Source: a virus | Taxonomy: Duplodnaviria; Caudoviricetes | Length of the DNA: 64,000 nucleotides | Reading direction: 5' to 3' (one strand) | IMG/VR virus record: IMGVR_UViG_3300033075_001514 | Span: 2,265-66,264 of that record | Shown here: in pieces, positions 1,525-54,365 of the stretch | Position numbering within the stretch: the stretch's first letter is position 1 | How the letters are laid out: each line of letters starts with the position of its first letter | The notes under the pieces: model-generated | Databases searched by the model: none | What the model was told of the DNA's origin: nothing | What the model saw: only the letters and a program-made list of their open reading frames with translations | Made by a program: the position numbers and the translations under genes

Positions 1525-1549
1525 CGAGCAGCTTTGGGTGTGGTAATCT
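1521..1549 (+). promoter_or_regulatory. promoter for tRNA cluster (TTGACG-N17-TAATCT; contains GTAATCT motif)
   Basis: TTGACG 1521-1526, GTAATCT 1543-1549, tRNA-like element begins about 7 nt downstream. Confidence 0.65.
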
Positions 1550-1555
1550 TCGTTT

Positions 1556-1629
1556 TGCGGGTGGGGGGTTAGCCATCCCAGAGGGCCTCATAAGCCTTCC
1601 CAACAGAGTGCAATTCTCTCGACGCCGCA
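1556..1629 (+). tRNA. tRNA-like element, CAT anticodon (Met/Ile2), irregular acceptor stem
   Basis: Anticodon arm AGGGC-CTCATAA-GCCTT, D stem GGGG/TCCC, T loop TGCAATT; acceptor pairing needs bulges. Confidence 0.55.
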
Positions 1630-1646
1630 ATTATACAAGTGAATAC

Positions 1647-1718
1647 GCGGCCTTGGGTCATTGGTTGATCGCTTCGTTGCCAACGAAGATTAAACGGGTT
1701 CGATTCCCGTAGGCCGCT
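1647..1718 (+). tRNA. tRNA-Gly(GCC)
   Basis: Acceptor GCGGCCT/AGGCCGC, anticodon arm CTTCG-TTGCCAA-CGAAG, T-arm with GGTTCGATTCC. Confidence 0.85.
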
Positions 1719-1743
1719 TCCAAACAGCAGTAATCTTGGAAGC

Positions 1744-2178
1744 ATGGAAACCAAGATTTGCAGCCAGTGTAAAGTGTCGTTGGATCTCTCCTCTTTTCAC
1801 AAAAAGGGAGCCGGAACTAGGGATCGATGCAAAGCCTGCAGCAAGCTCTACCACAAAGCGCATTACGAAGCCAATAAGCAAAAATACTTCGACAACGCCC
1901 TCGCAACAAGACACCGACTCCAGGACTTTGTCGATAGCCTTAAAAGCGGCCCGTGCGTAGACTGCAAACAGAGCTTCCCACCAGTAGTAATGGATTTTGA
2001 TCACACGTCAGACAACAAAATAATGAACGTAAGCCGCCTGGTGTGTTGGGGGAGCTTGCAAAAAGTCCAAGAAGAAGTTGCCAAGTGCGAGCTTGTATGC
2101 TCCAATTGCCATAGAATCAGAACACACAATAGGCGCGGGCGTAGTCGAGCAGCAAGACGCAGGTCTTCCAAACCTTGA
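1744..2178 (+). CDS. HNH homing endonuclease
   Basis: CxxC pairs, CVDC..MDFDH..KCELVCSNCHRIRT; paralog of 27524..27937; GTAATCT 7 nt upstream. Confidence 0.8.
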   Translation: METKICSQCKVSLDLSSFHKKGAGTRDRCKACSKLYHKAHYEANKQKYFDNALATRHRLQDFVDSLKSGPCVDCKQSFPPVVMDFDHTSDNKIMNVSRLVCWGSLQKVQEEVAKCELVCSNCHRIRTHNRRGRSRAARRRSSKP

Positions 2179-2206
2179 GACGCGAGTGCAACTCTCGCCG
2201 CCCGCT
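2135..2206 (+). tRNA. tRNA-Gly(TCC)
   Basis: Acceptor GCGGGCG/CGCCCGC, anticodon loop CTTCCAA, T-arm GCGAG-TGCAACT-CTCGC, U73; overlaps 3' end of HNH ORF. Confidence 0.85.
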
Positions 2207-2350
2207 TATGAAATCATCGCCTGGCCCCGTAGTGTTCTTCCCTCGGAACCCCATCGCCGCCTCGATTGCCGTCGCAGTCGCAGCATTGGTGCTCAAGGCT
2301 CCCAAGAAGTTTCAGACCGCGTTCCTCGCTGCCATCAGGAGTATTCGCCA

Positions 2351-2518
2351 ATGAAGATGGTGACTTGTGGCTGTAAGTGGTGCCGTGGTTCGATGCGTTT
2401 CGCGCCCGTCAAGGCCAAGACGCAGTACCTCAAGCGAGCCGCTCGCCACAAGGCCAAGCAGGACCTGAAGCAAGGTAAAGAGCCTGAGAAGGTCTACCGC
2501 GTTCCGTACATGTACTGA
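2351..2518 (+). CDS. small basic CxCxxC protein
   Basis: MKMVTCGCKWCRG...; coupled (ATGA) to an upstream 48-codon ORF 2208..2354. Confidence 0.55.
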   Translation: MKMVTCGCKWCRGSMRFAPVKAKTQYLKRAARHKAKQDLKQGKEPEKVYRVPYMY

Positions 2519-2531
2519 GGCTCGCGAGCCC

Positions 2532-2561
2532 TTGACAGTCGTAGCAACTAAATGGTACAAG
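2532..2561 (+). promoter_or_regulatory. early sigma70-type promoter with conserved spacer TAGCAACTAAATGG
   Basis: TTGACA-N18-TACAAG, ATG 6 nt downstream; near-identical copies at 12308-12337 and 12737-12766. Confidence 0.75.
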
Positions 2562-2567
2562 TGCTCC

Positions 2568-6099: not shown

Positions 6100-6106
6100 G
6101 TAATCT
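6100..6106 (+). promoter_or_regulatory. late promoter motif GTAATCT
   Basis: 7 nt before ATG 6114; one of about 19 copies upstream of late genes. Confidence 0.75.
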
Positions 6107-6113
6107 TCAGGGC

Positions 6114-6521
6114 ATGCACCTGTCCGCCCGAGTACTCAAAGATGTCCAGTCGGTTAATTCCTTTGAGGCCGACACTGAACTCTCGTGGACCGAGGGCGAC
6201 ACCCTTGACATCCACCTGCAGCTAATCGACGTCAGCCTCGACCGCGCCCTCCAAGGCTTTCAGCCCGAGGGGCGTAGGTACGTCCCCAACGCTGGTGCGA
6301 CGCTGTCGTGCGTCATCGAGAACATCGACGATGCCAAGAAAATCACCAGGTTGGCCTCTCAGCCATTCGCCAACGACGGCTCGATTTGGCGCCTGAGCAT
6401 TTTGGCGACTGACGTCATTCGTGGCACACCACAACTTCGCTTGACTCTGACCGAGGGGACCAAGGTCACCCGTGGTCTCGTCAGACTTGCGCTAAAGATT
6501 CATCCGCGCTCGAACTTGTGA
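6114..6521 (+). CDS. putative virion protein
   Basis: First gene after GTAATCT, upstream of neck gene. Confidence 0.55.
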   Translation: MHLSARVLKDVQSVNSFEADTELSWTEGDTLDIHLQLIDVSLDRALQGFQPEGRRYVPNAGATLSCVIENIDDAKKITRLASQPFANDGSIWRLSILATDVIRGTPQLRLTLTEGTKVTRGLVRLALKIHPRSNL

Positions 6522-11220: not shown

Positions 11221-11402
11221 GAGACCCTCGTAATCTAACCAGTTGAATTCAGGTCAATGGAGATTTCCCGACGGCTTAAACCACCACTTTACGGCCCCAC
11301 CGTGCCTATCGAGCCTAGCCGCAGTTTTTCCCGCGTTCGCCGTGAGCGCTATTGTTGTGTCTGGGCCTCGGCCAACCATCTTGCGCGCATCTCCAGGGCA
11401 CC

Positions 11403-13338: not shown

Positions 13339-13367
13339 GGTATATCACACCGTAATCTAAACGTCAA
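13339..13367. promoter_or_regulatory. overlapping divergent early (-) and late (+) promoters
   Basis: Minus TTGACG 13362-13367 and TATACC 13339-13344; plus GTAATCT 13352-13358 lies inside the spacer. Confidence 0.7.
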
Positions 13368-15670
13368 TGGAAGCTGACGGCCTAGAACATCTGCTTGGTG
13401 TAGACGACCCGGTTGAGCGCAGGCTCGCCCTCAAGTCGCACCACGTTGAGCCCTATCACCTGAGAATCGCTCTGCAAGACGAGGATCCACAGGTCCGTGA
13501 AGCTGCAGCCAATCACCCCGAACTCACCCCCGAACTGATGCACGAACTCATCCACGGGGATGACCGATGGCTCGCTGCTCAAATCGTCCAAAGGCCTGAT
13601 ATCACTGATGAACAGCTTGAGCACGCGATGCAGCACGATGACTTGCACCATCACGTCGTGGCCCACAAGGCCCTGACAGAAGACCAGCGCAACAGGCTGG
13701 CTGACGATGCAACGGTTGCTGAAGGCCTGAAGGATGACCTGGCCAAGTCCGACCTCATCAAGAACATTGGGCATTTGTTGTACCCGCACTTCGGTGAAGC
13801 CAAGCTCCACCAACTCGGCGCGTACTTCCCAGAGAAGAACCGCCGCAAGAACGATTTCCGCACCACCAAGTCGAAGACCTCAGTGTCCCAGACCGGCGGA
13901 TATACTGACTACGGCGCCTTCAAGGACAAGGCCTTGCCTGAGAACCGCCGCAGGATGAAAATCCGTGTGAAGTGGCGCAAAGACCCACCGACCGAGGTCG
14001 ACGAGGGTGTCCGCAACCGCATGTTCGGGGATGCCGACAATAACGACGTGGGTCACCTCGCTGACCAGTTCAGGGCCGTTCGCCAGGTTGTCGGCTCTAA
14101 ATCCGACCATGCAAACGAGCAGCACGAACTCCAGCACGGAGTCTTTGGACGCTTGGCCCAGAAGTATGGCATGAAGTCCAGGGACGCCATCATCCATGAG
14201 ACCCTGGCAAGGCTCCCAGACGAGCACCGTGCTGCTCTGAAGGGCGTTTTCTCCCATGGCCCCAGGATGAGCTATCACCCTTCACAGTGGCCTGAAGAGA
14301 CCATTGCGTTCGCTCAGAACTATTTGATGGACCCGGTCTATCGACGCAAAATCCACGTTGCTCAGCGAATCGACCGCAACACCGAAGCGCAGCACGACCA
14401 GGTCAAGAAGGTCCGCAAGGCCTGGAACGAACTTCAGCGCATTGCCCAGAACCTCAAGCCAGAAGACCTGGGCTTGGTCCACAAAACCGAAGACCAAGTC
14501 CTGCTCGAAGCCGTTGAGACCCTGACCAAGGCTCGTGGGGCCGACAGCGACAGTATCGTCGACCACCTCGGCTTTGACGAGCGTCGACACGCCATCCTCG
14601 AAGCCATTGAATTCTTGACCGGTAAGCCGGTTGACCCAGACGCGTATCGAGCCAGACTCATGGACTGTGACGACGACATCGAAGCGGCCTTGTTGGCAAG
14701 CGGCCTGACCCTTGAAGACCGCTCAAAGCTCGAAGCCGTGCTGTCGCTTGGTGGTGAACTGTCCAAGGCCGAGCCCAAGCTCCCCAAGCAGGTTCTGCCA
14801 GCCAACCACTCTGCAGCCGAGATGGCCTCTGACTTGCAGTGGGCTATTGACAACAACCAAATCGAGACTGTTCACCTCGGTGGCAAGCACTCTGCTGGCA
14901 CCTTGATGGCCCGCAATGACGATGGTGATTTGTTCCTGCTCAAGCCAGGCTCTGGCAAGCAATCCCCCGCTGCAGGGGCAGCAGAAGACAAGGCCTCCCA
15001 GTCTCGTCGTGAAGCAGCATTTTCTGCCGTGGCTCGCCAGATGCATATCCCCCAGGTCCCCCAGGTCGAACTCGTCCTGGTTGACGGCAAAGAGGTCGCT
15101 GGCATTCGAATGCTGGGCCTTGATTGGACAGGCCTTGCCCGTGCGAGGGAAAAAGACTCGCAGGTTCCCCGCAGAGTGCTGAAGCAGCACCTTGACGATG
15201 GCTCGATTTTCAAGTGGGCCATCATGGACGGAATACTCGCGAACCCAGACCGTCATGGTAACAACCTCATGATTGGTCCTGAGGGTAAAGTTGCGTTGAT
15301 TGACCACGGCTCCGCTTTCGCAGGACCTTCGTTTGACCCAGGTCACGACTCGAAGTCTTTCGTTCCGTACTACCTGAGGATTTGGGGACCTGAAAAGGGT
15401 TGGTCGAAGCTCTCGCCCGAAGAGCGTCTCCGTGTCCTTCCGGTTCTTGGCGAAGAAGCGGACAACGAAATCAGAGAATGGGTTGAAAACCTCGATGTCG
15501 CTGCTCTGGCGGATACGATGTACCGCTACGGCATCGACCCTGGGCCAAGTCTCGAAAGATTCCAAGCCCTGCGGGGTTACATGGATACTACACCTGATAA
15601 GGTCTCGGAAATCATGAACAAGATGTGGATTGGATTGCTGCCGTGGAGAGGTTTCAAGCCACAGCGGTAA
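13367..15670 (+). CDS. 767-aa multi-module protein: HEAT/LRV-like repeats, unknown modules, C-terminal PI3/PI4-kinase/HipA-like kinase
   Basis: LFLLKP..REAA..LANPDRHGNNLMI..LIDHGSAF; N-terminal DEDPQVREAAANHP repeats. Confidence 0.75.
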   Translation: MEADGLEHLLGVDDPVERRLALKSHHVEPYHLRIALQDEDPQVREAAANHPELTPELMHELIHGDDRWLAAQIVQRPDITDEQLEHAMQHDDLHHHVVAHKALTEDQRNRLADDATVAEGLKDDLAKSDLIKNIGHLLYPHFGEAKLHQLGAYFPEKNRRKNDFRTTKSKTSVSQTGGYTDYGAFKDKALPENRRRMKIRVKWRKDPPTEVDEGVRNRMFGDADNNDVGHLADQFRAVRQVVGSKSDHANEQHELQHGVFGRLAQKYGMKSRDAIIHETLARLPDEHRAALKGVFSHGPRMSYHPSQWPEETIAFAQNYLMDPVYRRKIHVAQRIDRNTEAQHDQVKKVRKAWNELQRIAQNLKPEDLGLVHKTEDQVLLEAVETLTKARGADSDSIVDHLGFDERRHAILEAIEFLTGKPVDPDAYRARLMDCDDDIEAALLASGLTLEDRSKLEAVLSLGGELSKAEPKLPKQVLPANHSAAEMASDLQWAIDNNQIETVHLGGKHSAGTLMARNDDGDLFLLKPGSGKQSPAAGAAEDKASQSRREAAFSAVARQMHIPQVPQVELVLVDGKEVAGIRMLGLDWTGLARAREKDSQVPRRVLKQHLDDGSIFKWAIMDGILANPDRHGNNLMIGPEGKVALIDHGSAFAGPSFDPGHDSKSFVPYYLRIWGPEKGWSKLSPEERLRVLPVLGEEADNEIREWVENLDVAALADTMYRYGIDPGPSLERFQALRGYMDTTPDKVSEIMNKMWIGLLPWRGFKPQR

Positions 15671-15680
15671 TCTCATGCTC

Positions 15681-16232
15681 GTGAGAACCTACAAGCGCAT
15701 CGATTACACAGGCCACAGATTCGGATTAATCACCATCTTGGGAGATCGCCAAGTCCGCAGGGGCCCCAATCCCGTGACGACATGGCAGGCTGTCTGCGAG
15801 TGCGGAAACACCCTACGGGTCCAGATATCCAATCTCAGGTACGCGCGACGGCCAAGCTGCGGCTGCAACAGTCGCCTCGAAACGTCGGCCAGAATGTCCA
15901 AGAGGCCCGGATTCGCCGCTGAGACAATGGTGTTGGGCTACTACCAGAAAAACGCTCGCACGAGAGGTCTGACCTGGGACTTGACCCGCGACCAATTTTC
16001 TGAACTGATTGCCAAGCCTTGCCACTATTGTGGCGAGGTCGGTTCGATGACCAAGACCAAGCACAAGGACACAATTCGGTGCAATGGAGTCGATCGCGTT
16101 GACTCAAGCAAAGGATACGTTCCAGACAACGTCGTCTCTTGCTGCAAGACTTGCAACAATGCGAAGTCCAGTATGTCGGTCACCGAGTTCATCTCTTGGG
16201 CCAAGAGACTTGTTGCCCATCAGGTCATTTAA
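15681..16232 (+). CDS. HNH homing endonuclease
   Basis: CECG, SCGC, CHYCG..GVDRVDSSKGYVPDNVVSCCKTCNNAK; in-frame GTG 7 nt after GTAATCT (ATG 15675 alternative). Confidence 0.85.
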   Translation: MRTYKRIDYTGHRFGLITILGDRQVRRGPNPVTTWQAVCECGNTLRVQISNLRYARRPSCGCNSRLETSARMSKRPGFAAETMVLGYYQKNARTRGLTWDLTRDQFSELIAKPCHYCGEVGSMTKTKHKDTIRCNGVDRVDSSKGYVPDNVVSCCKTCNNAKSSMSVTEFISWAKRLVAHQVI

Positions 16233-19832: not shown

Positions 19833-19877
19833 CTTATACACGACTAAATGCCCGCCGTCAAGCCTGCATCGTAATCT
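19833..19877. promoter_or_regulatory. back-to-back early (-) promoter and late (+) GTAATCT
   Basis: Minus -10 19833-19838 and -35 19856-19861; GTAATCT 19871-19877. Confidence 0.7.
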
Positions 19878-19896
19878 GTGATGTCGAGAGGTTACG

Positions 19897-20193
19897 ATGC
19901 AAATCACCCAGAACGAAATTGAGTTCAAGCGGAAGGTCGGCAAGTCCGGCTCCAGGGACATCTACCACGTCAAGACCCGTGGAGGTTTGCACGTCATGGC
20001 CCGTTCTGACGGTACTGTGCTTGGTGCTGGTCCCCACAGGGCTGTCGCTCGCCATCTGGCCCAGAAGTTCGAGCCTGAGGCCGAATGGACTGAACTGAGC
20101 AAGTCCGACCACGTCGACTTCGAGGTCTTCGAGCATCTCGTGCCCAAGTACGAAGACATCACCATCAAGATGCGTGCCATCCAGGAAGACTAA
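19897..20193 (+). CDS. late hypothetical protein
   Basis: GAGAGG SD, after GTAATCT. Confidence 0.7.
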   Translation: MQITQNEIEFKRKVGKSGSRDIYHVKTRGGLHVMARSDGTVLGAGPHRAVARHLAQKFEPEAEWTELSKSDHVDFEVFEHLVPKYEDITIKMRAIQED

Positions 20194-21051
20194 ATGTCAC
20201 GTCGACCAGTCAACGACCTCATTACGGAAATCCCTCCGCATCAAATCAGCTTTGACGCAGAGGCGTTCGATGATGCTGTCCGCTCCCAGGGTGTCAGGCT
20301 CGTGCATTACGCTGCGACCAGGTGCCCCGTCGGCATGACCGACATGGACGAAATCCGTCGGCCGCACCCTGACCACGAGGGCTGCACCAACGGGTTTTTG
20401 TACACCAAGACCGGCACGATTACCGCACTGTTCACAGGTAACTCGAAGCACAAGAACCCTGAGGAAATGGGGTTCTGGGACGGCTCGACCGTTCAGGTGA
20501 CCTTCCCCCGCCAATACGATGAGACCGGCGAGCCAATTTTCGTCGCGCCCTTCGACCGGTTCTACCTCGAAGAGGAAGACATCGTCGTCCCCATTTGGCA
20601 GCTATTCATGCACCACGAGTCGGGCATTGACCGCCTGAAGTACCCCGTCGCCCAAATCCAGCAACTCATTGATTCGGCTGGCTTGCGGTACACCCAGGGC
20701 TCTGACTTCAGCGTCACGTCCAGTGGTGAACTCCGTTGGACTGGCCGTCGACCCATCCCCAACCTCGACCTGGGCGGACCCGCTCCTACTCGCGGTGCTG
20801 TGTGCTCGGTACGGTATTTGTATCGACCGTATTGGTACGTCGGCCAAATCGTCCATGAACTCCGTGTGACTCAGATTTCCGATGGTCCCGACAGGTCCAT
20901 CCAGCGCATGCCTCAAGCCGTGGTTCTGCATCGTGAATACGTGGCTTTGACTCGTGAGCAAGAAGAGCCCGGCGAACCAGGCGGTGCGATTGACGCAGAC
21001 GCCATGCGCAGGGTACTCGGCCCGTCTTCTGGCGGCTTTAGCCCTCGGTAA
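20194..21051 (+). CDS. neck/head-closure protein (SPO1/Twort-type)
   Basis: FDDAVRSQGV..ATRCPV..CTNGFLY..FDRF pattern recalled from Herelleviridae neck proteins. Confidence 0.6.
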   Translation: MSRRPVNDLITEIPPHQISFDAEAFDDAVRSQGVRLVHYAATRCPVGMTDMDEIRRPHPDHEGCTNGFLYTKTGTITALFTGNSKHKNPEEMGFWDGSTVQVTFPRQYDETGEPIFVAPFDRFYLEEEDIVVPIWQLFMHHESGIDRLKYPVAQIQQLIDSAGLRYTQGSDFSVTSSGELRWTGRRPIPNLDLGGPAPTRGAVCSVRYLYRPYWYVGQIVHELRVTQISDGPDRSIQRMPQAVVLHREYVALTREQEEPGEPGGAIDADAMRRVLGPSSGGFSPR

Positions 21052-21061
21052 TCTTACAGCC

Positions 21062-28534: not shown

Positions 28535-28957
28535 TTATCTGACACGCCCTTTTTGGACATCATGCTTCTCCAGGTAAAAAGCCGCAGCCCTCAATCGGCT
28601 GGGGTCGTCTTTAAAGAACCCAAGGGCTCGGTTGCAGGCGTCGCAAAGCAACTCTCTTATCTTTCCGGTTTCGTGGTTATGGTCTACCACGAGCTTCAGC
28701 ACTCTACCGTTCGGCGGCCCTCTGCAAATAGCACACTTGCCATTTTGGTTTTCTACTAAGCTCCGATAGGCGACAAGCGACAGGCCGTAAGTTCTTTTGA
28801 GATGCCCTTCGATTTCTGTATTGGGATGTTTCTTCCGAGACTTCCGCACCGCCTCGTTCGTCTTCTCTTTGTTCTTCTCCCTATACCGACGCTGGTACTC
28901 GCGCATTTTCTCTTTGTTTACGAGCGCCCACTGTTTCCGTTTTTCTTTAGGTGTCAT
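28535..28957 (-). CDS. endonuclease VII-like HNH homing endonuclease
   Basis: CAICRG..LVVDHNHETGKIRELLCDACNRALG; GTAATCT (28965-28971, minus) 7 nt upstream. Confidence 0.85.
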   Translation of the reverse strand: MTPKEKRKQWALVNKEKMREYQRRYREKNKEKTNEAVRKSRKKHPNTEIEGHLKRTYGLSLVAYRSLVENQNGKCAICRGPPNGRVLKLVVDHNHETGKIRELLCDACNRALGFFKDDPSRLRAAAFYLEKHDVQKGRVR

Positions 28958-29002
28958 GCCGGACAGATTACGTTCCGTGTCCGCTGACTCGTAACGAAGT
29001 TT

Positions 29003-32160: not shown

Positions 32161-32199
32161 TGCATATCAGATGGACAGCGGCCCGTCAAGGCGTAATCT
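32161..32199. promoter_or_regulatory. back-to-back early (-) and late (+) promoters
   Basis: Minus -10 32161-32166 and -35 32184-32189; GTAATCT 32193-32199. Confidence 0.7.
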
Positions 32200-32206
32200 C
32201 TAAACC

Positions 32207-35905: not shown

Positions 35906-35995
35906 GCAGTCATCATACCATGTAATCTTTTCTTCGTTCTCAGGTTGCCGTGCCGAACACGGGTAATCTTCAGGTTGTTCATCAGGAGTCACTAA

Positions 35996-36397
35996 ATGGC
36001 TATCTCAATCCGTACCACCCTTCGCAACACCCGGCTCGACGCCATCACCACCGACGTCGGTGCGACTGGCACGCTGCGATTCTATGACGGCACCCCTCCC
36101 GCCTCGGCCAACGCTGCACTCTCGGGTAACACCCTTCTGGCAACGCTGAACTGCTCTGCGACCTTCGCCCCCGCCTCTGCTTCTGGCGTTCTGACTGCCA
36201 ACGCGATTTCGTCTGCGACGGCCGCTGCAACTGGCACCGCGAGCTTCTTCCGCTTGCTGCGCCCTGACGGTACGACTGTCGTCCTCCAAGGCACTGTCAA
36301 CACCTCGGGCGCCGACCTCAACCTCAACAGCGTCAGCATCACTTCGGGCGGTACCGTCTCGGTGTCCTCGTTCGTGCTCACCGAAGCCAACGCCTAA
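35996..36397 (+). CDS. small virion/fibre-associated protein
   Basis: RNTRLDAIT..LRFYDGT.P..LLATL..ATGTASFFR..G.V..SGADLNL family pattern; GTAATCT at 35963 plus AGGAG SD. Confidence 0.65.
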   Translation: MAISIRTTLRNTRLDAITTDVGATGTLRFYDGTPPASANAALSGNTLLATLNCSATFAPASASGVLTANAISSATAAATGTASFFRLLRPDGTTVVLQGTVNTSGADLNLNSVSITSGGTVSVSSFVLTEANA

Positions 36398-41208: not shown

Positions 41209-41226
41209 ACCGGTAATCTCTAAGTC

Positions 41227-44200
41227 ATGGCAATTCCAGGTCACCTGCGCAACCACCCCCTATTTTCCGGCGGCCGGTTTGGTCTCATGAGCGGCGAAAG
41301 CCCCAGGTTTCCTGCTACCCAAAAGCCAACCCACGAGAACCTGGTCAATCATCTGAGGAATCAAGGGATTGGGTTCGAAGAGACCCACGGTCGCTACGAC
41401 GACCCAGAACGCTCAGTCATTATTCACTCGCCTACCCGCGAGATGATGGCTGACCTCGGCAAGCACTTCGGCCAAGAGTCCGTGGTGTTCTCTGACAAGG
41501 GCAAGCACGAATTGCTCTACACCAACGGCGAGCACGAAGGCAAGTCGCGCCTGACGAAGCCTGGCTCTGAACCCATCGATTGGTTCCACGAAGCTCCGTC
41601 GAATTACTACACGCACCTGCCCAACCACGGTTATTTCGGAATCAACTTCGACTTCGATTCGGACCCCCAGCACCACGGCCCGGTCCAAGCCGCTCCTTCA
41701 GCGCCTGCGCCGATGACGAAGCACGACTTCAAGGAAGCGGCGTTCTTGCACTCTCCTACGGGTCAGGTTGTCGCGACGGGACACCGCCACGACCTTGAGC
41801 ACCCTTCGATGGACCTCAAGGCCTTCAATCGCGGCGAGTACGTCGATGGTTTTGTTGACTCGAAGGGCAAGTTCTTTGACCGCAACCAGGCTCTCGCAGT
41901 CATTCGGCGCGAAGGTATGCCCGACCCCGTGTTGCCAAGCGGCGAGGTCGAGGTCCATTCAGACGACCTGGACATGCCATATAAGGTACACGGTGGACTC
42001 AACAAGGCTGGTCAGCCCTCGGATATCCTCCAGGTGCTGGCTGATGAACTTGAGATGCAGGGCTGGTCACCGAACGAAATTCCCCAGGCTACGGGGGTCG
42101 GTGCCATTGATTCGGATCGGTCCAAGTTGGCCGGTCACCGTGGCGCCGATTGGGCTACGGCGATTTCTCAGAGAACGAATCGCCACGCCGACAACCTTGA
42201 GGCCTTGGCCCAAGAGCGTGGACATACACACGGCAACACTTCACTGGAACGTGACCAACTTGGCAGAACGGCCGAACAACAAGCAATGCACGACATCGCA
42301 TTGGCCGACAAGAGCCGTGACTCCGGCGATGCAAATTACGTTGGGGACAATCCGTTCCACCACAACAATCTTCCCGGCGTGTTGGACGCCGACAACTTCG
42401 GCAAGGACTTGACCGACAGGTCAGGTAAAGTCCCCGTCCCCTTTTCTGCAAGTCCTACCGAAGCTGCTACGTCTGTCGCTGGCAACATGCCGACGGGTAA
42501 CGAGATGCGCGCCGCATGGAAGTCTCACCCCCATGCGTACGAATGGCACGACGGCCACTCAGACCACCACCGACTCGCACCCAACCTGGAAGCGATCCAG
42601 AAGTCCTTCGGGCTCTGGAAGGCAGATCTACCCAAGAACGACCAGGCCGCTGGCGTTGGCGCACCGACGTATGCCAAGTTCGCTGGTCCATACGGTGAAG
42701 TCCGTGGTCGTGCTACGCCCAGTGACCTGACGCACTATAACTACCACGGGAAGCTCCCCGAAATCGAAGCTCTCGTCAAAAAGCACGGATTCAAGACCTA
42801 CTTCGCTGGCGGTAAATACGGCAAGCCCGACCTCCAGGCCAAGAACTACAACAACGGCCACTTGATGATTTACGACCCGACTCCTTCGTCGGGCGGCGAC
42901 TTCAAGGACCACCAGTACACGAACGCGTGGCGTCAAATCCACGAGCTTTCGCACGCACTCACTTACCCCGAACTGAACTCCATTTACGGCGAAGGTCGTC
43001 GAATCGGCAAGCTCGGTACTCACCGTACCCCGAACGAAGCCATGCGCGCCGTACATTGGGAATGGCTCGCAGCCCACAAGCAGCGCGACTTGAGCGCCAA
43101 GCTCGGCATTCACGTGCCCGACGAGGTGTTCCACAAGGAACTCAACACCGTCATGCACGACGCTGTACGCCGTGCTGTGACTGGCCAGTTCACTGAGCCT
43201 GCGGGCGAGGGTTTTGTACCCCACAGCCACAAGGTCCCCCTCCACATCGCCCTCGACACCGTTCGCAACGAAGCACAGGCCATGGGCATCCAGCACCCCC
43301 ACGGGCTCGCGAAGCGTCCGATGATGAAGGCCTGGCCTGCAGGCGCTACTGAGACCCAGGATTCGCCTGAGAACCAAGCCAACGCAGCAGCGCACAAAAC
43401 CATCACTGAACGCGCCGAGGTATTTGGTGACAAGCAGGAAGAGCAGGGCTTGCCTCGTACGGGCGTTCACCCGAATGCGCTTTCGAGTATTCGAAGTAGA
43501 GCCCAAATTGGCGGCTCGCAAGACCAGCAACTTGGGCGTATTAGTACGGCTCGCCACACGAACGACATTGCAAGGTTCAATGCTGGCTGGCCTGGTTCAG
43601 ACCCAGTGATGCCAGCAAAGGCCTACATCGACGGTGGCGGCTATGACGAAGCGCCGTACGACAGCAAGGGCGACTTGAACGACCAAAACTACTGGGCCGG
43701 AATCGGTCGTGCCGCTGGTATTCAGAAGTCTGACCCCGGCGCTCCGCTTCACGCTGATGCCAATACATTCCTTGCCGCTCTGAAGGGTCTACCCAAGGGC
43801 TCGCCTGAACGCGGTAAATTCGTCACGCAGCACATGAACCACGGTCCGTTCTTGGCCGCTCTCCAGGCTCATCCTCAAGGCGTCCAAATCCACAAAATGC
43901 TCACCGGGTTCTTGAACTCGAAGGCAAACGCCGGTCCTGGTCTGCCAATGAAGACCGTCGCAAAATCAGAGCCTCACGTAATCTTGTCGAAGCAAGGGAA
44001 CACCATGTCCGAAAAGACCTACACACCACAAGAAGCCGTCGAAGTACTCAAGAAGGCGGCCTCTGACAAAATCAAGGCCATGGAGTATCGGCTTCAGGAC
44101 CTCCGCAAGCGTGAGCTTTCGAAGGGGTTGATTCCAACTCACAAGCACAACACCGGCTCGTCGGCCAGTGCTGCGATGGAAGACGTCCCGCCCTCGAAGC

Positions 44201-45153: not shown

Positions 45154-45819
45154 ATGGGTTGCATTTACACATACTCGGATCCCCGAAACGGCGAGGTTCG
45201 TTATGTAGGCAAGACTGACCGGACCTTAGAGGTCCGTGCGATTGAGCACAGATACGCCTCTAGAAAAGGGAGGACGCATCTGTATACTTGGATGCGTTCT
45301 TTGCCGACTTCGGCCCTCATCGAGGTTCTTGAAGACTCGCCAGCAGACATCAATGAAGCCGAAGTTTTTTGGATTACCCAACTAAAGGCTTGGGGGTTTC
45401 GGCTCGTCAATCACACTGAAGGTGGCGAGGGAATTTCAGGTTGGCACCACTCCGAGACTACCAAGAGGCACCTGTCGACGACGCTTTCCGGCAGGGCGCA
45501 ACCCCCTGGTTGCGCGCAAAACATTCGATTCGCACAAAAAGCAAACGTCGGTAGCAAAAAGCCGAAATCCAAAGAAACCATAAAGATTGCCATGGAGGCT
45601 AGCAAGAGTGCCGAAGCTCGAATTGCTCGTTCGAGGGCGCTTGGTGGCACGGCGGTGCTGTGCGAATCGACAGGAATCGTCTATCAGACGGTCGCCGAAG
45701 CGGCAAGACAACTTAACCTCGACCCTTCAAGCGTCCGGAAGGCGGCCAAGGGTCTACTGCATTCAACTGGGGGCATGAAGTTTAAGACCCTGGACCCAAC
45801 ACCTCATCAAGCAAAGTAA
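45154..45819 (+). CDS. GIY-YIG homing endonuclease with NUMOD-like tail
   Basis: CIYTY..VRYVGKT..R..H..E..WI..LVNHTEGGEG..YQTVAEAARQL. Confidence 0.85.
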   Translation: MGCIYTYSDPRNGEVRYVGKTDRTLEVRAIEHRYASRKGRTHLYTWMRSLPTSALIEVLEDSPADINEAEVFWITQLKAWGFRLVNHTEGGEGISGWHHSETTKRHLSTTLSGRAQPPGCAQNIRFAQKANVGSKKPKSKETIKIAMEASKSAEARIARSRALGGTAVLCESTGIVYQTVAEAARQLNLDPSSVRKAAKGLLHSTGGMKFKTLDPTPHQAK

Positions 45820-45844
45820 TCTCGCTCTTTGCAGGAGTACTAAA

Positions 45845-48388
45845 ATGGCCAAAAGCTTTTCTGATAGTTCCGGAACACTGTACCGCCCTGGCGCATACAG
45901 TCAATATAAGGTCGCTTCGAGCCCTTCTGGCCTCGCTACGACTGGCGTTCTGATGCTCGTCGGTGAAGCCGACGCAGGACCCGTGTATTCGCTGGAGTCC
46001 GACCTGGAAGCCAACGCGTTTGGTCCCGACCAACTGGCCGATGTCGAAGCCAAGTACGGCTCGGGTCCTCTCGTTGACGCCTTCCGCGCTGCGACTTCGC
46101 CTGCTGACGACCCCGACATCACTGGCTCGTTCAGTTCGGCCATCCTCGTCAAAACCAACACCTCGGCCAAGGCCAGCGGAGTTCTCCCCGCCATCGGCGG
46201 TGGTACTTACGCGACCCTCCTCGACAAGTCGTACGGTAAGGGCGGCAACGGCATCGCTTTCCGCTCGCTGAGCGCAACCGCCGAAGTCGTTCCTACGACC
46301 GGCGCTTTCACGTACATCCCCGCTGTCGGTGCAATCGACTACCGCATCCGTTCGAACGGTGCTGCAGCCGTCGGTACGACCATTTCGGCGAACACGACCC
46401 CCACCGCGCTCGTGACCCTACTTGACGCCCTCGCTGGCGTCACTGTTACGGGTGGAGCTTCGCGGTCGATTCTGACTGCAACTGGCGGCCGTACCATCGC
46501 CATCGACGCCTTCCCCGCCTCGACGACGGCCAACACCATCCTCGTCACGATTTCCGCTCCCTGGGACAACATCCCCACCATCGGCGACACCTTCGTCATC
46601 CCAGCGACTGCCCCCGCGCTCCTGCGCGACCCCGCTGGTGGCTCGACTGACGAAAACGTCGGTGCGTACGTCATCACTGGCGCGACTTCGCTGACCATCA
46701 CGGCCGTCAAGCTCTCTGACGCCGGTCGCGGTGGCGCAGTCGCCGGAACCATCACGGCTCCTGCCGACACGGCCGCTCCTGTCGCCCTCGTTGCGGCTAC
46801 CGACCTGGTCGCCTACGCCCCCATCACCATCACCCAGGACGCGGCGGCCGTTGTCTCGGGCTACGCCAAGTCGCTCGAAATCGCTGAACTGACCTCGGGT
46901 GCGGACCTGCTGTCGCGTACCGCGTACGTCCTCGGTACCACGACCGCTGTCACCTGGGTTTCGAAGACCTCGGCCCCTGTCCTGCTCGGTTCGTCGGCCG
47001 AATACCGGGTCCAGCTTGACATCAACAAGAACGCAACGCTCCAGTCGGAGTCGTTCACTGCCGGTGGCGACATTGCCCTCAAGATTGGTTACGCGGGCAC
47101 TACCGCCGTAATGACCTTGACCGACACCACCCTGACCACGACGGTCACTGGTGGCTCGGGTGCGAACCTCTCGCTGACCCTGGCCGACTACAGCAATATC
47201 CAGGCCATGGTTGACTACATCGCCACCCAGGCTGGATATACTTGCACCACCGGCACCGCGTCGCTCGGCCAGCTTCCTCTTGCCGCCCTTGACAACGTCG
47301 CCGCAGTCGGAATTTGCGGCCAGTTCGGCACGACCCCCGGTCAAATCAAGACCGACGCATACTCGTTCTTCGACGAAGTCAACTCGAACTCGGGTGTGCT
47401 CCAGGTCAACGACCCCGCAGCCCAGGCCGCTTCGGGTCTCCCCGACGTCATGGCTGCCCAGGTTTTCATGACTGGCGGAACCAAGGGTGGCACGACCGAT
47501 GCAGTCGTCACCGCCGCAATCGCCGCACTTGAGACCGTTCAGGGAAACTTCCTCGTTCCTCTGTTCAGCCGCAACGCAACCAGCGACATCGCCGACGGTC
47601 TGACCGACGCTGCGTCGACCTACACCATCGCGTCGATTCACGCTGCTGCCCGTTCGCACGTTCTGGCACTCAGCACCCTGAAGCGTCGCCGCAACCGCCA
47701 GGCCTTCCTCTCGATTGCCTCGGCCTTTGCGACCGCAAAGAACACCTCGGCAAACATCGCGAGCTTCCGCTCGTCGATGGCTTTCCAGGACTTCCGCCAG
47801 AACGGCGCCAACGGCATCCAGACGTACCTCCCTTGGATGGGCGCGGTTCTTGCTGCTGCCATCCAGGCCGCTGGGTTCTACCGCAACATCGAGTTCAAGG
47901 GCGTCAACACCGTCGGCGTGCTGTCCCGTGCCAACGACTTCAACGCCAAGAACGACTCCCAGGTCGAACAGGCTCTCAAGGCCGGTCTGCTGGTCGCTGT
48001 ACCTGCCCGCACAGGTGGCTACATCTTCGCCTCGGACCAAACCACCTACGGCAAGGACAACAACTTCGTCTTCAACTCGATTCAGGCCGTGTACGCCGCT
48101 GACACCGTCAGCCTCACCATGGCTCAGAGGATGGAGACCGCCTTCGTCGGCCAGTCTGTCGCTGACGTCAGCGCCCCTGTTGCTCGCGCCTTCGCTGAAG
48201 GCGTCCTCGCCGACATGCTCCGACTGAAGCTCATCGCTCCTTCGGACGGTGCCGAAAAGGGCTGGAAGAACCTTGGAATCAAAATCCGTGGCAACGCCAT
48301 GCTTGTGTCTGTCGAAATCAAGCTCGCGACCGCCATTGACTTCATCAAGATCGACTTCCTCGTTTCGCAGGTCGAGCAGTCGGCCTAA
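45845..48388 (+). CDS. tail sheath protein
   Basis: RPGAYS..VLMLVGEADAGP N-terminus and sheath C-terminal pattern; 847 aa; upstream of tube gene. Confidence 0.85.
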   Translation: MAKSFSDSSGTLYRPGAYSQYKVASSPSGLATTGVLMLVGEADAGPVYSLESDLEANAFGPDQLADVEAKYGSGPLVDAFRAATSPADDPDITGSFSSAILVKTNTSAKASGVLPAIGGGTYATLLDKSYGKGGNGIAFRSLSATAEVVPTTGAFTYIPAVGAIDYRIRSNGAAAVGTTISANTTPTALVTLLDALAGVTVTGGASRSILTATGGRTIAIDAFPASTTANTILVTISAPWDNIPTIGDTFVIPATAPALLRDPAGGSTDENVGAYVITGATSLTITAVKLSDAGRGGAVAGTITAPADTAAPVALVAATDLVAYAPITITQDAAAVVSGYAKSLEIAELTSGADLLSRTAYVLGTTTAVTWVSKTSAPVLLGSSAEYRVQLDINKNATLQSESFTAGGDIALKIGYAGTTAVMTLTDTTLTTTVTGGSGANLSLTLADYSNIQAMVDYIATQAGYTCTTGTASLGQLPLAALDNVAAVGICGQFGTTPGQIKTDAYSFFDEVNSNSGVLQVNDPAAQAASGLPDVMAAQVFMTGGTKGGTTDAVVTAAIAALETVQGNFLVPLFSRNATSDIADGLTDAASTYTIASIHAAARSHVLALSTLKRRRNRQAFLSIASAFATAKNTSANIASFRSSMAFQDFRQNGANGIQTYLPWMGAVLAAAIQAAGFYRNIEFKGVNTVGVLSRANDFNAKNDSQVEQALKAGLLVAVPARTGGYIFASDQTTYGKDNNFVFNSIQAVYAADTVSLTMAQRMETAFVGQSVADVSAPVARAFAEGVLADMLRLKLIAPSDGAEKGWKNLGIKIRGNAMLVSVEIKLATAIDFIKIDFLVSQVEQSA

Positions 48389-48391: not shown

Positions 48392-48817
48392 ATGGATGCC
48401 CTGACTTACAAAGGAAAGGCCAGGGCGCGTGCGAAGGCCTATTACGAACAAAACCGAGATCGCATCAACGCCGCTCTGCGCGAAAAGCGCAAGAGCGGAC
48501 AGGCCACCAAGTCGACGAAATACGTACGAAAATGGAGAGCCGAGAACCCCCAGCGGGCATTGGCTCTCAAGCTCAAAAAGTACGGAATCTCGGTAGAGTT
48601 CTACCAGGACCAACTAGAACAGCAACAGGGGAACTGCAAAATCTGTTCTGAGAAAATGATTCCGCCGAACGTCGACCACGACCACAAGACCGGGACCGTC
48701 CGTGGACTTCTGTGCAGTCGATGCAATACCGCTATCGGACTCTTAAGAGAAAGTAAGAGCAATTTAATCAACGCTCTCGCTTATCTCGAAGCATCAACCA
48801 GTAATCTGGTCCAGTAA
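48392..48817 (+). CDS. endonuclease VII-like HNH homing endonuclease
   Basis: CKICS..VDHDHKTGTVRGLLCSRCNTAIG. Confidence 0.85.
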   Translation: MDALTYKGKARARAKAYYEQNRDRINAALREKRKSGQATKSTKYVRKWRAENPQRALALKLKKYGISVEFYQDQLEQQQGNCKICSEKMIPPNVDHDHKTGTVRGLLCSRCNTAIGLLRESKSNLINALAYLEASTSNLVQ

Positions 48818-48831
48818 GAAGGAGATTTCAA

Positions 48832-49302
48832 ATGGCTAGCAAAACGATGAATGGCGCCAGGGGGAAGGTATACATCGCCGACCCCAACACCGGCAAGCCC
48901 GAACTGATTGGTATTTTCTCGACAATCAGTTGGGGTCTCCAGTACGACGTCCAGCCCGTATTCCTCCTTGGCCGCCACGGCGCCGATGAACTCGTCTACA
49001 CGGCCCAGGAACCCGTCACCGTCAACTGCTCGGGCTTCCGAGTCGTCGGCGCAGGTGCCCACCGCCTTGCGAAGGTCCCCAACACCAAGGACCTTCTGAC
49101 GCACGAATACATCCAGCTTGTGATTGCTGACCGCCAGACCGGCCGAGACATCGCTCGAATCCACTCCGTACGCCCCACCAGCTACTCGACGACCCTGAAC
49201 GCCCGCAACCTCGAAGAGATTTCCATCAGTTACATGGGCTTGCTCGTAGACGACGAAGACACCCAGCTTGCTGAACGTGCTGACGCCACGACCCTTCCGT
49301 AA
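48832..49302 (+). CDS. tail tube protein
   Basis: Follows sheath; strong AAGGAG SD; GTAATCT 48801; beta-rich tube-like sequence. Confidence 0.75.
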   Translation: MASKTMNGARGKVYIADPNTGKPELIGIFSTISWGLQYDVQPVFLLGRHGADELVYTAQEPVTVNCSGFRVVGAGAHRLAKVPNTKDLLTHEYIQLVIADRQTGRDIARIHSVRPTSYSTTLNARNLEEISISYMGLLVDDEDTQLAERADATTLP

Positions 49303-51927: not shown

Positions 51928-52195
51928 GCCATGTCAAACCAGCCCAGTTGGGACGATGTGATGCGTACACTGGCGGATATTGCCAATCCGGAGCCCGCCA
52001 GGACCGTCCCAGTTGAGCCCGAAGAGAGCGACTCGACCGACCCCGCAAGTGGAAACATGCGAGATTGTTACATTTGCGGGTGTCGGCTCGACATGCCTGA
52101 GCACATGATTTACCGTCGGGCAAACGCCCGATACGTACTCAGTACATGCATGCCGTGTGCCGACCAATACATTCTAGACACGTAATCTTTGCGGT

Positions 52196-52606
52196 ATGCC
52201 ACCCGCAATTGATTTCGGCCCCCAGCTTTCGTCCCATGAAGACCGCCTCCAACGAGTTGAGGCGAACTCAGAAGAGACGCGTGTACTTGTCGCCGAGATC
52301 GGCACGAAAATCGACCACTACGAACAAGTCCACTCGCGTAGTCGAGCGGAACTGTCAGACAAGATTCAAAGCGGCTTTGAGCGCATCAACGAAGACCAGA
52401 GAACCCTTCTGGACCGTTTGGAGGCGCACGCCGCTGACCTGCGAGACCACAAGTCCCGCATCGAAATCACCGAAAAGCACATGAATGAGGCCCAGGGCCG
52501 GGCGACCGCCCGCATGGATGTCCTCAAGAAACTGGCGATCGGCGTGCTGCTCGCTGCGTGTGGCGTTCTGGGTACCAAGCTCGCAGAGACCCTGGTGAAC
52601 CCATGA
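52196..52606 (+). CDS. late coiled-coil protein with C-terminal TM anchor
   Basis: GTAATCT 7 nt upstream. Confidence 0.6.
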   Translation: MPPAIDFGPQLSSHEDRLQRVEANSEETRVLVAEIGTKIDHYEQVHSRSRAELSDKIQSGFERINEDQRTLLDRLEAHAADLRDHKSRIEITEKHMNEAQGRATARMDVLKKLAIGVLLAACGVLGTKLAETLVNP

Positions 52607-52878
52607 CTCCCGAGAAGCCCGTAAAGCGCCCTGACGATGGCGGCTACAAGTCCCGCAAGCTCACGCTGGCGTACGTAGCCCTGGTCCTGATGACCGTGGG
52701 GTTCTTTGCGACCGCTCGTTGGCCGAGCTTGGCGTCGACCTACATGGAATTCAACATGGCGGTATTGGCTGCGGCTTCAATCTACACTGGCGGTAACACC
52801 CTCAGCAAGTGGATTAACGCTCGCAAGGTGGCAACGAAGAAGCCGAAGTCGCCAGCCGCGCCACCACCTGGGAAGTAA
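52603..52878 (+). CDS. holin-like 2-TM membrane protein
   Basis: SRKL + TM + TM + basic tail; late operon. Confidence 0.5.
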   Translation: MTPEKPVKRPDDGGYKSRKLTLAYVALVLMTVGFFATARWPSLASTYMEFNMAVLAAASIYTGGNTLSKWINARKVATKKPKSPAAPPPGK

Positions 52879-52972
52879 CTTCAACGTCCTGTCGTAATCA
52901 TGCTGCGCGCGACGTGGAGCGAATACCCAGCCGTCAAGATTTTGAATGCGACCGAGTCCTTGGATTCGTCGC

Positions 52973-53239
52973 TCACAGCCCGAAACCCATCAAGAGCTTG
53001 ACAGCCTTGGCGTCCAGGCGCTCTTCTTCAGTCATGGGACCCGCGCCAAGTAGCTTGGCGAGGTCTTCGACGAATTCGTCGGCCCTGAAGCTGCAAACGA
53101 CTCTGCCGGAGCCATCGGACTTCTTTGCCAGAATGCCAAGTTCGATTCCCACCGAGGCGTCGGCTTCGATAGCCTCTTCGATGGCGAACCTCAGGTGAGG
53201 CAGTATTTGCAGCATTTTGTTGCGGATTTCGTCGTTCAT
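52973..53239 (-). CDS. hypothetical protein
   Basis: Coupled to SEC-C gene. Confidence 0.55.
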   Translation of the reverse strand: MNDEIRNKMLQILPHLRFAIEEAIEADASVGIELGILAKKSDGSGRVVCSFRADEFVEDLAKLLGAGPMTEEERLDAKAVKLLMGFGL

Positions 53240-53433
53240 GGTTCCCCCATTGCAATCTGCGCCAAAGCAACTGCCATCAACAGCTTGTCGCTCCGTCTAC
53301 GTCCGACGTATGTCCGCCTGAAATCGTCCTCGCGCAAGGCCTCTTCGTGAGCAGCCTCGATTTGCCAGCACAAGCAGAGCTTGCGCTTTTTCCCCGAACC
53401 GCAAGGACAGGGCTTGTTGCGGTCATTCGCCAT
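53236..53433 (-). CDS. SEC-C motif mini-protein
   Basis: RNKPCPCGSGKKRKLC; TTGACC-N17-TATAAG-N6-ATG upstream (53440-53468). Confidence 0.75.
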   Translation of the reverse strand: MANDRNKPCPCGSGKKRKLCLCWQIEAAHEEALREDDFRRTYVGRRRSDKLLMAVALAQIAMGEP

Positions 53434-53445
53434 ACCGACCTTATA

Positions 53446-53982
53446 TCAACGAAGGTCCCACTGGTCAAGAGCGCGGCGGCGCCTTTCGGCCTGACGGTAC
53501 AAATCCGGGTCGCCGTCCAGGGTCACCCGGGCGTCTGGAGTCGTAGTAACAAAACCCGACCAGTTGCTCGAATTCCTCAGCATGATTGTTCCGGACTCCA
53601 ACTCCAGTTGTTTTGGCCCCACGGAGCCCGCCTGGCGGTCCAAGGTCGAATCTTCGTCCATGAACCCTAGTTCGGCCCTGATTTGGAGGAACAAGTGTTC
53701 TACGGGCCTCCTGGAGCACCAAAGCCCCATTCCGTTGGCCCTGTTGATACGCCAAACCAGGGGGACTTCGTACGAAATTCCCTGGTACCTTACGAACTCG
53801 ACCGCTCGCGTGAGACAGTAACCGTTGATTTTCCCACGAATGCGGAGCACGTAGTCGCGGATCGCCCTGTCATGGTCATAAACGTCGAGGCGGTAGCCTT
53901 GCTCCATCAGGAGGTCAAAGGCTACCGCCTCAAATCCATCGTTGCCGGGGTGTTCGGACTCTCGTTGAGGCTGGGGGCTCAC
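53446..53982 (-). CDS. hypothetical protein
   Basis: 178-aa ORF. Confidence 0.6.
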   Translation of the reverse strand: MSPQPQRESEHPGNDGFEAVAFDLLMEQGYRLDVYDHDRAIRDYVLRIRGKINGYCLTRAVEFVRYQGISYEVPLVWRINRANGMGLWCSRRPVEHLFLQIRAELGFMDEDSTLDRQAGSVGPKQLELESGTIMLRNSSNWSGFVTTTPDARVTLDGDPDLYRQAERRRRALDQWDLR

Positions 53983-54132
53983 GGGTCGAATCTTAGCAGA
54001 ACCGTCCTGTGAAGTCCGTCAAGGGGCTGGTTGTGCTGGTAGAACGGCACGCCGCCACAGGTCCTGCGCATGTTGGCGATTTCCTTCTGGCCCGCAGCCA
54101 AGCTGCGCACACATGCACCGCAGAGCTTTGGG

Positions 54133-54303
54133 TCAATCCCACCCGTTGCTGGGTGCCACGGGGATCGGCACATCGTGCAGAGGTCGTCCCCCGTCGCCTG
54201 AATCTTCATACGGTGCCGGAGCAGGAAGCTGGGGTCGTTGCTCTTCCCGGTCGCGTCTCTCAAGTTTTTGGAGGTCATCGATAATCCAGGCTGGAGGGGT
54301 CAT
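54133..54303 (-). CDS. small late protein (MTPPAWIIDDLQKLE...)
   Basis: Not in track; TAATCT (54311-54316, minus) exactly 7 nt upstream of ATG. Confidence 0.55.
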   Translation of the reverse strand: MTPPAWIIDDLQKLERRDREEQRPQLPAPAPYEDSGDGGRPLHDVPIPVAPSNGWD

Positions 54304-54365
54304 GTGCTGTAGATTATGCCCAAAGGAAACTCAGATTACCAGCGTTAAATGTAATCTGCAAGCTT

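Follow-up and report, generated by a model that had tools for sequence, protein, structure and literature searches.

GTAATCT as a probable -10-only late promoter with predicted leaderless starts in a relative of Myxococcus phage Mx1

We analysed 64 kb (GC content ~58%) from a single 66,264-bp contig of a tailed phage (IMG/VR record IMGVR_UViG_3300033075_001514, positions 2,265 to 66,264). This whole stretch is called the window below, and its coordinates are counted from its first letter. The subject is the heptamer GTAATCT, which recurs in the window in front of genes, in many cases a set number of nucleotides ahead of the start codon. Myxococcus phage Mx1 (OR576727; 169.6 kb, GC 55.5%) is the only GenBank phage with similarity to the window, and its tail sheath protein is 43% identical. 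The similarity is at the protein level only: megablast of 10 kb of the window against GenBank phages gave no nucleotide match. Local tblastn of all window open reading frames (ORFs) against Mx1 showed the window to be syntenic with Mx1 21-43 kb, and the genes common to both blocks begin with thymidylate synthase, continue with several large virion-associated proteins and end with sheath and tube. Judged by this comparison, the contig appears to be about 40% of an Mx1-like genome with an expected length of ~170 kb, centred on the late structural module.

PHROG and Pfam scans gave the following assignments (start positions; plus strand unless marked). The gene caller overlooked the endonuclease genes, whose codon usage is foreign; they were added from their PHROG matches.

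20194 and 35996: virion structural proteins
45845: tail sheath
48832: tube-like virion protein
54366: ClpP-like protease
1744, 15681, 27937 (minus strand), 28957 (minus strand) and 45154: five homing-endonuclease-type genes

A rescan of the window found 20 copies of GTAATCT. The first-pass annotation had given 19 of them, all at the right coordinates, but its list was not complete, as it had overlooked the copy at 43978 on the plus strand. The 20 copies and a single variant, ATAATCT, are listed below, where N7 and N8 stand for gaps of 7 and 8 nt between motif and start codon, and SD stands for a Shine-Dalgarno sequence.

1543..1549, plus strand: GTAATCT with TTGACG 17 nt upstream (1521-1526); 97 nt before tRNA-Gly(GCC) 1647-1718; no ORF start adjoining
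1730..1746, plus strand: GTAATCT-N7-ATG 1744; HNH endonuclease 1744-2178, directly behind tRNA-Gly
6100..6116, plus strand: GTAATCT-N7-ATG 6114; 135-aa protein, whose Mx1 ortholog (23137) has CAATCT and an SD leader
11230..11259, plus strand: GTAATCT, 20-nt gap, ATG 11257; ORF of 54 aa, no clear SD, gene uncertain
13352..13369, plus strand: GTAATCT-N8-ATG 13367; 767-aa PI3/4-kinase-like protein
15667..15683, plus strand: GTAATCT-N7-GTG 15681; HNH/EndoVII-like endonuclease; motif on TAA of 13367-15670
19871..19899, plus strand: GTAATCT, 19-nt gap, ATG 19897; SD GAGAGG from nt 9 after the motif; Mx1 ortholog (30724) with CAATCT and SD
21048..21064, plus strand: GTAATCT-N7-ATG 21062; 319-aa protein; motif on TAA of virion protein gene 20194-21051
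27935..27951, minus strand: GTAATCT-N7-ATG 27937; HNH endonuclease, paralog of 1744, 21 nt behind tRNA-Ile
28955..28971, minus strand: GTAATCT-N7-ATG 28957; endonuclease VII family protein
32193..32209, plus strand: GTAATCT-N7-ATG 32207; 855-aa protein, divergent intergenic; Mx1 ortholog (33963) with CAATCT and a 24-nt SD leader
35922..35928, plus strand: GTAATCT, upstream tandem copy, 34 nt ahead of the next copy; abuts ATG 35921 of a minus-strand ORF
35963..35998, plus strand: GTAATCT, 26-nt gap with SD AGGAG, ATG 35996; virion structural protein, first gene of an operon reaching 41208
41213..41229, plus strand: GTAATCT-N7-ATG 41227; 1305-aa protein (virion protein gene 41227-45144)
43978..44010, plus strand: GTAATCT, 23-nt gap with AAGGGA, in-frame ATG 44008 within ORF 41227-45144
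45816..45847, plus strand: GTAATCT, 22-nt gap with SD AGGAG, ATG 45845; tail sheath; motif on TAA of homing-endonuclease-like ORF 45154-45819
48801..48834, plus strand: GTAATCT, 24-nt gap with SD AAGGAG, ATG 48832; tube-like virion protein gene
52182..52198, plus strand: GTAATCT-N7-ATG 52196; 136-aa protein; motif on TAA of 51931-52185
54333..54339, minus strand: GTAATCT, upstream tandem copy, 15 nt ahead of ATAATCT
54301..54317, minus strand: ATAATCT-N7-ATG 54303; 56-aa ORF
54351..54368, plus strand: GTAATCT-N8-ATG 54366; 224-aa ClpP-like, head-maturation-protease-like protein

In 100 dinucleotide-preserving shuffles of the window 2.90 ± 1.63 copies are expected, with a maximum of 8, and none of the 100 shuffles reached 20. 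The chance that the motif is a compositional repeat, or the remnant of a repeated mobile cassette, is therefore practically negligible: four of the N7 genes do encode homing endonucleases, but the flanks of the copies are not conserved, and the motif is kept at orthologous non-mobile genes (see below) though the sheath proteins are only 40-60% identical. The signal is the exact 7-mer. Its one-mismatch variants have 68 matches, spread over the variants at background level, and ATAATCT alone among them has the spacing. TAATCT is unchanged in 21 out of 21 sites and fits a -10 element of the TANNNT type (T at -12, A at -11 and T at -7). Neither a -35 hexamer nor a TG extension was found for GTAATCT, as positions outside the 7-mer carry at most 0.42 bits each, and TTGACG at a distance of 17 nt upstream is seen for copy 1543 only. 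As a promoter, GTAATCT would thus belong to a -10-only class.

Called genes take up 90% of the window. Fourteen of the 20 copies are wholly intergenic, four lie over an upstream stop codon, one falls on the final codons of the ORF ahead of it and one is at a conserved internal start. The copies are thus almost confined to gene boundaries. All copies share their orientation with the downstream gene or tRNA. The genes behind them encode sheath, tube, virion structural proteins, the ClpP-like protease, large proteins syntenic with the Mx1 structural module, and homing endonucleases. The motif is thus restricted to late (structural) transcription units. Minus-strand clusters, of the early type, have no GTAATCT in front; promoters of the TTGACA/TATAAG type are found in its place. 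The TAA within the motif might instead be taken as a stop-restart junction for translational coupling, since four copies (15667, 21048, 45816 and 52182; the first-pass annotation had counted three) are on an upstream TAA. This seems very improbable: 16 of the 20 copies are off any stop, several intergenic copies have no co-directional upstream gene, three copies face minus-strand genes, and the invariant G, the TCT and the N7 spacing would be left unexplained.

The distance to the start codon is the second regular feature. An ATG follows at a gap of exactly 7 nt in eight out of 20 copies (1744, 6114, 21062, 27937, 28957, 32207, 41227 and 52196) and at 7-8 nt in 10 out of 20, with 13367 and 54366 being N8 cases (P ~1e-10 for a fixed offset, given a window-wide ATG frequency of 0.0134 per position). 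GTG 15681 makes a ninth N7 copy, and the ATAATCT variant at 54311 (minus strand) is also at N7. With these two, the twelve 7-8-nt sites of the first-pass annotation are all confirmed, and so is its observation of an SD at the longer gaps before 19897 (19 nt), 35996 (26 nt), sheath (45845, 22 nt) and tube (48832, 24 nt). Together with the internal start at 44008, five gaps of 19-26 nt contain an SD box. The distribution of gaps in the window is bimodal (7-8 nt, or at least 19 nt), as expected if transcripts start ~8 nt past the motif, because such a start leaves either no leader or a leader long enough for an SD.

Several other features agree with a transcript start at this distance. The base before the start codon at N7 sites is a pyrimidine in 10 out of 10 cases and a C in nine (C precedes 38% of other gene starts), which matches the preference of RNA polymerase for starting at a purine after a pyrimidine. 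At the 12 N7/N8 sites the 14 nt before the start are taken up by motif and gap, with no GGAG-like sequence. Family-wide, SD cores after [CT]AATCT start no earlier than +8/+9 and peak sharply at +9, whereas their distribution after the control [AG]AATCT is flat. The N-termini are genuine: homology with Mx1 or IMG/VR orthologs starts at or within a few residues of ATGs 6114, 41227, 52196, 54366 and 21062, and the in-frame sequence upstream of these five ATGs is closed or non-homologous. In addition, several copies lie between divergent genes, where there has to be a promoter. For example, the divergent gap 13333-13366 has only 34 nt, in which GTAATCT for the plus-strand gene 13367 is interleaved with a TTGACG-N17-TATACC promoter for the minus-strand gene 13332, so there is no space for any leader. 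Resting on this geometry, genes at the N7/N8 sites probably yield mRNAs that are leaderless or have a leader of 1 nt.

A similar layout is seen in promoters of the sigma70 type. There are 20 matches in the window to TTGACA (at most one mismatch)-N16-18-TATAAT (at most two mismatches), and in seven of them an ATG 5-7 nt past the -10 hexamer is the start of an ORF of 65-167 codons, against 0.08 such cases in simulated sequence. The generic consensus scan of the window is not above shuffles; the subset with an ATG at 5-7 nt alone is significant. The forms observed are TTGACA, TTGACG or TTGACC, N17/18, and TATAAG, TATACC, TACAAG or TATATT. The seven putative early promoters, and a further one listed beside them, are as follows.

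2532-2570, plus strand: early promoter with near ATG
23844-23881, plus strand: early promoter with near ATG
12299-12337, minus strand: early promoter with near ATG
12728-12766, minus strand: early promoter with near ATG
13330-13367, minus strand: early promoter with near ATG
19823-19861, minus strand: early promoter with near ATG
53431-53468, minus strand: early promoter with near ATG
19376-19415, minus strand: further early promoter

Leaderless starts thus look like a general design in the window phage and are not peculiar to its late genes, which is a caveat on the interpretation in the first-pass annotation. Mx1 differs in this respect, as its sigma70-type promoters have the ATG 24-27 nt downstream and hence are not leaderless. 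Several 'TTG start codons' in the window's ORF list are in fact the -35 box of early promoters.

A fixed distance of 7-8 nt to the ATG would also fit a role of GUAAUCU in the RNA, either as a processing site at which transcripts are trimmed to a 5'-AUG, or as a non-SD sequence recruiting ribosomes; GUAAUCU can pair with GGAUCAC of the 16S rRNA 3' tail (taken from general knowledge) at six out of seven positions. We consider this quite improbable. The motif also stands before SD-led genes at a variable 19-26 nt, where it could not help to position a ribosome, and the N7 spacing is too long for an SD distance. GTGATCT, a variant that would pair better with the rRNA, is not enriched. The divergent intergenic copies lie where a promoter is needed and nothing else is present, the +8 boundary obeyed by SD cores is that of a transcript 5' end, and the early promoters, with -35 and -10 boxes, have the same hexamer-to-ATG geometry.

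The promoter reading extends to relatives of the window phage. In Mx1, [CT]AATCT is found within 60 nt upstream of 18 out of 52 plus-strand starts of the late cluster (2% expected, P ~1e-17), including the orthologs of seven window genes (6114, 13367, 19897, 32207, 41227, sheath and tube). The sheath gene of Mx1 lies at 39319 and its tube gene at 42239. The sheath ATG is preceded by [T/C]AATCT and an SD in 14 out of 17 IMG/VR loci with sheath homologs (identity 38-63%, GC 32-67%). Among 82 non-redundant related loci (related loci carry L numbers below), candidate promoters, i.e. a motif with a plausible start, carry C or T before AATCT; [AG]AATCT forms are commoner overall in these loci, yet are not used as promoters. 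Relatives thus vary between C and T at the first position of the hexamer and keep A at -11 and T at -7, while the window clade (the window, L005, L007 and L011) has strictly GTAATCT. The CAATCT form of Mx1 was also considered as a promoter in the window and rejected, as its 24 copies there all appear to be intragenic and none is promoter-like.

The spacing is conserved at some orthologs. Those of 41227 have GTAATCT-N7-ATG in L007 and L008 and CAATCT-N7-ATG in L018/19 (N9 in L011 and N11 in L009), those of 52196 have N7 (L005, L011) or N8 (L007), and the ortholog of 54366 in L005 has N8. In every case with retained N7-N8 spacing (41227, 52196 and 54366) the sequence of the gap differs. Across the family the ATG peak at gaps of 7-8 nt is about 2-fold above background, and sheath and tube retain SD leaders throughout, which is compatible with the first-pass proposal that abundant proteins keep such leaders and low-copy proteins would do without. 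The internal site in ORF 41227-45144, consisting of [C/T]AATCT, an SD and a start (ATG 44008 in the window), is kept in all of eight relatives, and the nested start is in phase with the upstream ORF where checked (by open frame in L007 and L011, and by coordinates in L008, L009 and L018). The conserved site predicts a separate C-terminal product of 378 aa.

If the motif is a promoter, a factor must read it, and relatives provide a candidate. Mx1 has a gene at 2071-3078 annotated as 'putative RNA polymerase sigma factor' and adjoining its terminase gene. With the L026 homolog of this sigma as query, more than 600 family members were found, many on contigs of 160-176 kb. A profile of 37 family sigmas matches primary sigma factors (SigA) in PDB over regions 2 and 3 and as far as the region 4.1 helix 'LSxxExxxLRLxG' (E ~3e-8), and all 37 aligned sequences stop no more than ~10 residues past this helix. 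The family sigmas therefore end after region 4.1 and would lack the region 4.2 helix-turn-helix that reads -35 elements, which fits a promoter with no -35 element. The AlphaFold model of a family sigma (pLDDT, the model's confidence score, 82.8) has SigA chains of holoenzyme structures as its top fold matches. Three relatives with GTAATCT-N7-ATG sites (L082, L085 and L098) carry the family sigma within 10 kb. At -12 both C and T are used by most relatives, and the T-only loci with a sigma are too few for covariation between this base and the sigma. From the co-occurrence of motif and sigma in relatives, the family sigma lacking region 4.2 could well be the reader of the motif.

The sigma lacking region 4.2 also marks a very large group of uncultured phages (loci L027-L105), of which Mx1 is the only cultured member found. 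Across this group the sigma loci have GC contents of ~37-69%, and among the sheath relatives GC is as low as 32%.

A number of points weigh against the reading of GTAATCT as a late promoter with leaderless transcripts and a phage sigma as its reader. The 66-kb contig has no sigma homolog by tblastn or by the hidden Markov model built from the 37 family sigmas (E <= 10), although this is expected because the region of the Mx1 sigma gene falls outside the contig. For the phage sigma proposed as reader in the first-pass annotation, the candidate thus comes from relatives, which encode a sigma with no -35-reading domain. The A of the ATG is the eighth nucleotide after TAATCT, one beyond its place in the early promoters (N6) and beyond the commonest sigma70 distance. 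GTG, used at one N7 site (15681), works poorly in E. coli as a leaderless start. The ORF at 54303 is doubtful, and substitutions in its overlap with the ORF starting at 54278 favour neither frame. Three copies (1543, 11230 and 35922) have no convincing gene start beside them, and with four N7 genes being homing endonucleases, as mentioned above, the signal could travel in a mobile cassette, though the flanks are not conserved. Finally, where transcription starts, which sigma acts and when the genes are expressed are all inferred, and the 5' ends are predicted ones. A search for sequencing runs that contain 45500-55400 gave two, from one study and of unrecorded type, and none listed as RNA.

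The same promoter and the same leaderless layout would result if the motif were read by the host primary sigma, redirected by a phage-encoded factor that binds RNA polymerase. TAATCT does match the TANNNT read by primary sigmas, the contig has no sigma gene of its own and the family sigma is tied to the motif by co-occurrence only; moreover, the authors of the Lalka27a study infer such a factor for TAGGGT late promoters (bioRxiv 10.64898/2026.04.20.719267). We nevertheless think it unlikely, as the family universally encodes a sigma lacking region 4.2, suiting a promoter with no -35 element, and as recognition by a host sigma normally depends on a -35 element or else on a TG extension, neither of which is present here, whereas the early promoters do have TTGACA.

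The first-pass claim of a -10-only late promoter is thus supported by placement, gene class, absence of a -35 element or TG extension, and conservation of core, position and spacing. Every computational test that could have gone against the promoter reading favoured it, and GTAATCT is most likely a late promoter element. For the combined reading, i.e. a late promoter with leaderless mRNAs at N7/N8 sites and the family sigma as its most likely reader, we estimate a probability of roughly 0.68. Under this combined reading TAATCT would be a -10 hexamer of the TANNNT type, to which the preceding G adds specificity, with no -35 element in use. RNA polymerase with a late specificity factor, most likely the family sigma with its regions 2 and 3, would melt the DNA at the motif and start transcription ~8 nt past it. 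At the 12 N7/N8 sites the mRNA would then begin at the AUG or 1 nt ahead of it and be translated leaderless. At most other sites (sheath, tube, the operon head and the nested internal start) the transcript would begin just ahead of the SD, giving a leader of 12-19 nt.

Some neighbouring loci deserve description. Paralogous HNH endonuclease genes lie right behind tRNA genes in two places (1647-2206, plus strand, and 27524-28047, minus strand), each with a putative N7 late promoter of its own, and ORF 1744-2178 overlaps the following tRNA-Gly(TCC) by 44 nt. In Mx1, an unannotated HNH homolog with TAATCT-N7-ATG is found at 48109-48677 between tRNA-Gln and tRNA-Lys. Near the first of the two window loci, copy 1543 combines TTGACG and GTAATCT (1521-1549) and could be read by the host sigma as well as by the late factor. 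The product of 15681-16232 (plus strand) also matches the PHROGs 'decoy of host sigma70' (E 1e-9) and 'Srd anti-sigma factor' (E 4e-8), which probably reflects a common domain, not the function.

At 53979-54303 (minus strand), the 56-aa ORF with ATG 54303 overlaps, in another frame, a clearly coding and conserved Cys-rich ORF of 99 aa (ATG 54278), which has no SD; in relative L005 (~10330-10620, minus strand) both overlapping ORFs are open, with the same lengths and the same arrangement. The window also has two strong hairpin terminators, at 49324-49361 (plus strand, 17-bp stem) and at 26767-26797 (minus strand, 13-bp stem), the former closing the sheath-tube transcription unit directly behind the tube gene.

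More broadly, and tentatively, [C/T]AATCT may be the late promoter of the whole ~170-kb Mx1-like group, read by the group's own sigma, with either a zero leader or an SD depending on the ribosomes of the host; the host of the window phage would then be proficient in leaderless translation, unlike that of Mx1. If so, the spacing from promoter to ATG is a readable marker of the host's translation mode and of expression tuning, with sheath and tube always SD-led. Orthologous genes that would be leaderless in the window phage and SD-led in Mx1 offer a natural comparison, accessible in the culturable pair of Mx1 and M. xanthus. For a family known from a single cultured phage (Mx1) and hundreds of metagenomic relatives, the analysis supplies a promoter consensus along with a probable logic of transcription, and lets start codons and transcription units be assigned from sequence, e.g. 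the nested start in the gene of the 1305-aa virion protein.

The elements of this design have counterparts in known systems. Late transcription of T4 uses the gp55 sigma, gp33 and the gp45 clamp at the promoter TATAAATA. T4 is alike in having a -10-only late promoter with 7-8 invariant bases before the structural genes of a large myovirus, and a phage sigma with no -35-binding domain. It is unlike the window phage in that its late mRNAs have SD leaders, and gp55 is much smaller than the 340-aa sigma of the Mx1 family, which retains regions 2, 3 and 4.1.

The Thermus phage Lalka27a has late promoters with a class-specific TANNNT element (TAGGGT) and no usable -35; transcription starts ~6 nt downstream, most transcripts begin with the A or G of the start codon, and other promoter classes are leaderless too (bioRxiv 10.64898/2026.04.20.719267). 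The same leaderless pattern was found earlier in phiYS40, according to that preprint (Sevostyanova et al. 2007, PMC1885378, as cited there). Like these phages, the window phage has a putative class-specific -10-like late element and a predicted leaderless design in other promoter classes. However, the consensus is different (GTAATCT here, [C/T]AATCT family-wide), the window phage comes from an unrelated family (Mx1-like, with a contractile tail and genomes of about 170 kb), and the reader is likely a phage sigma, whereas a modified host holoenzyme is thought to act in Thermus. Moreover, the starts were mapped in Thermus, and those of the window are predicted from sequence.

Among bacteria, a -10 element adjoining the ORF has been validated experimentally in Deinococcus (PMC12340547), and leaderless genes with a '-10 region adjacent to ORF' are common in mycobacteria (PMC4633059). 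The leaderless genes of both groups, Deinococcus-Thermus and mycobacteria, share with the window a TANNNT fixed a few nucleotides before ATG or GTG, the lack of an SD and the spacing requirement, but theirs are general host promoters for the primary sigma, while that of the window is an invariant 7-mer specific to one phage promoter class.

The closest comparison is with Mx1, which has the syntenic structural module, [C/T]AATCT before orthologous late genes and five N7-ATG cases of its own (7617, 36563, 75289, 121405 and the unannotated HNH ORF after tRNA-Gln). It differs in using mainly CAATCT and in having SD leaders of 10-44 nt at most late genes. The genome announcement of Mx1 has no promoter analysis (PMC10720576), and no regulatory analysis has been published for the Mx1-like family. 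Other phages are already known to use the mechanism itself, in which a phage sigma and a -10-only late promoter go with leaderless late mRNAs; what this case adds is the large uncharacterised family, its conserved consensus and the contrast between predicted leaderless and SD-led starts at orthologous genes.

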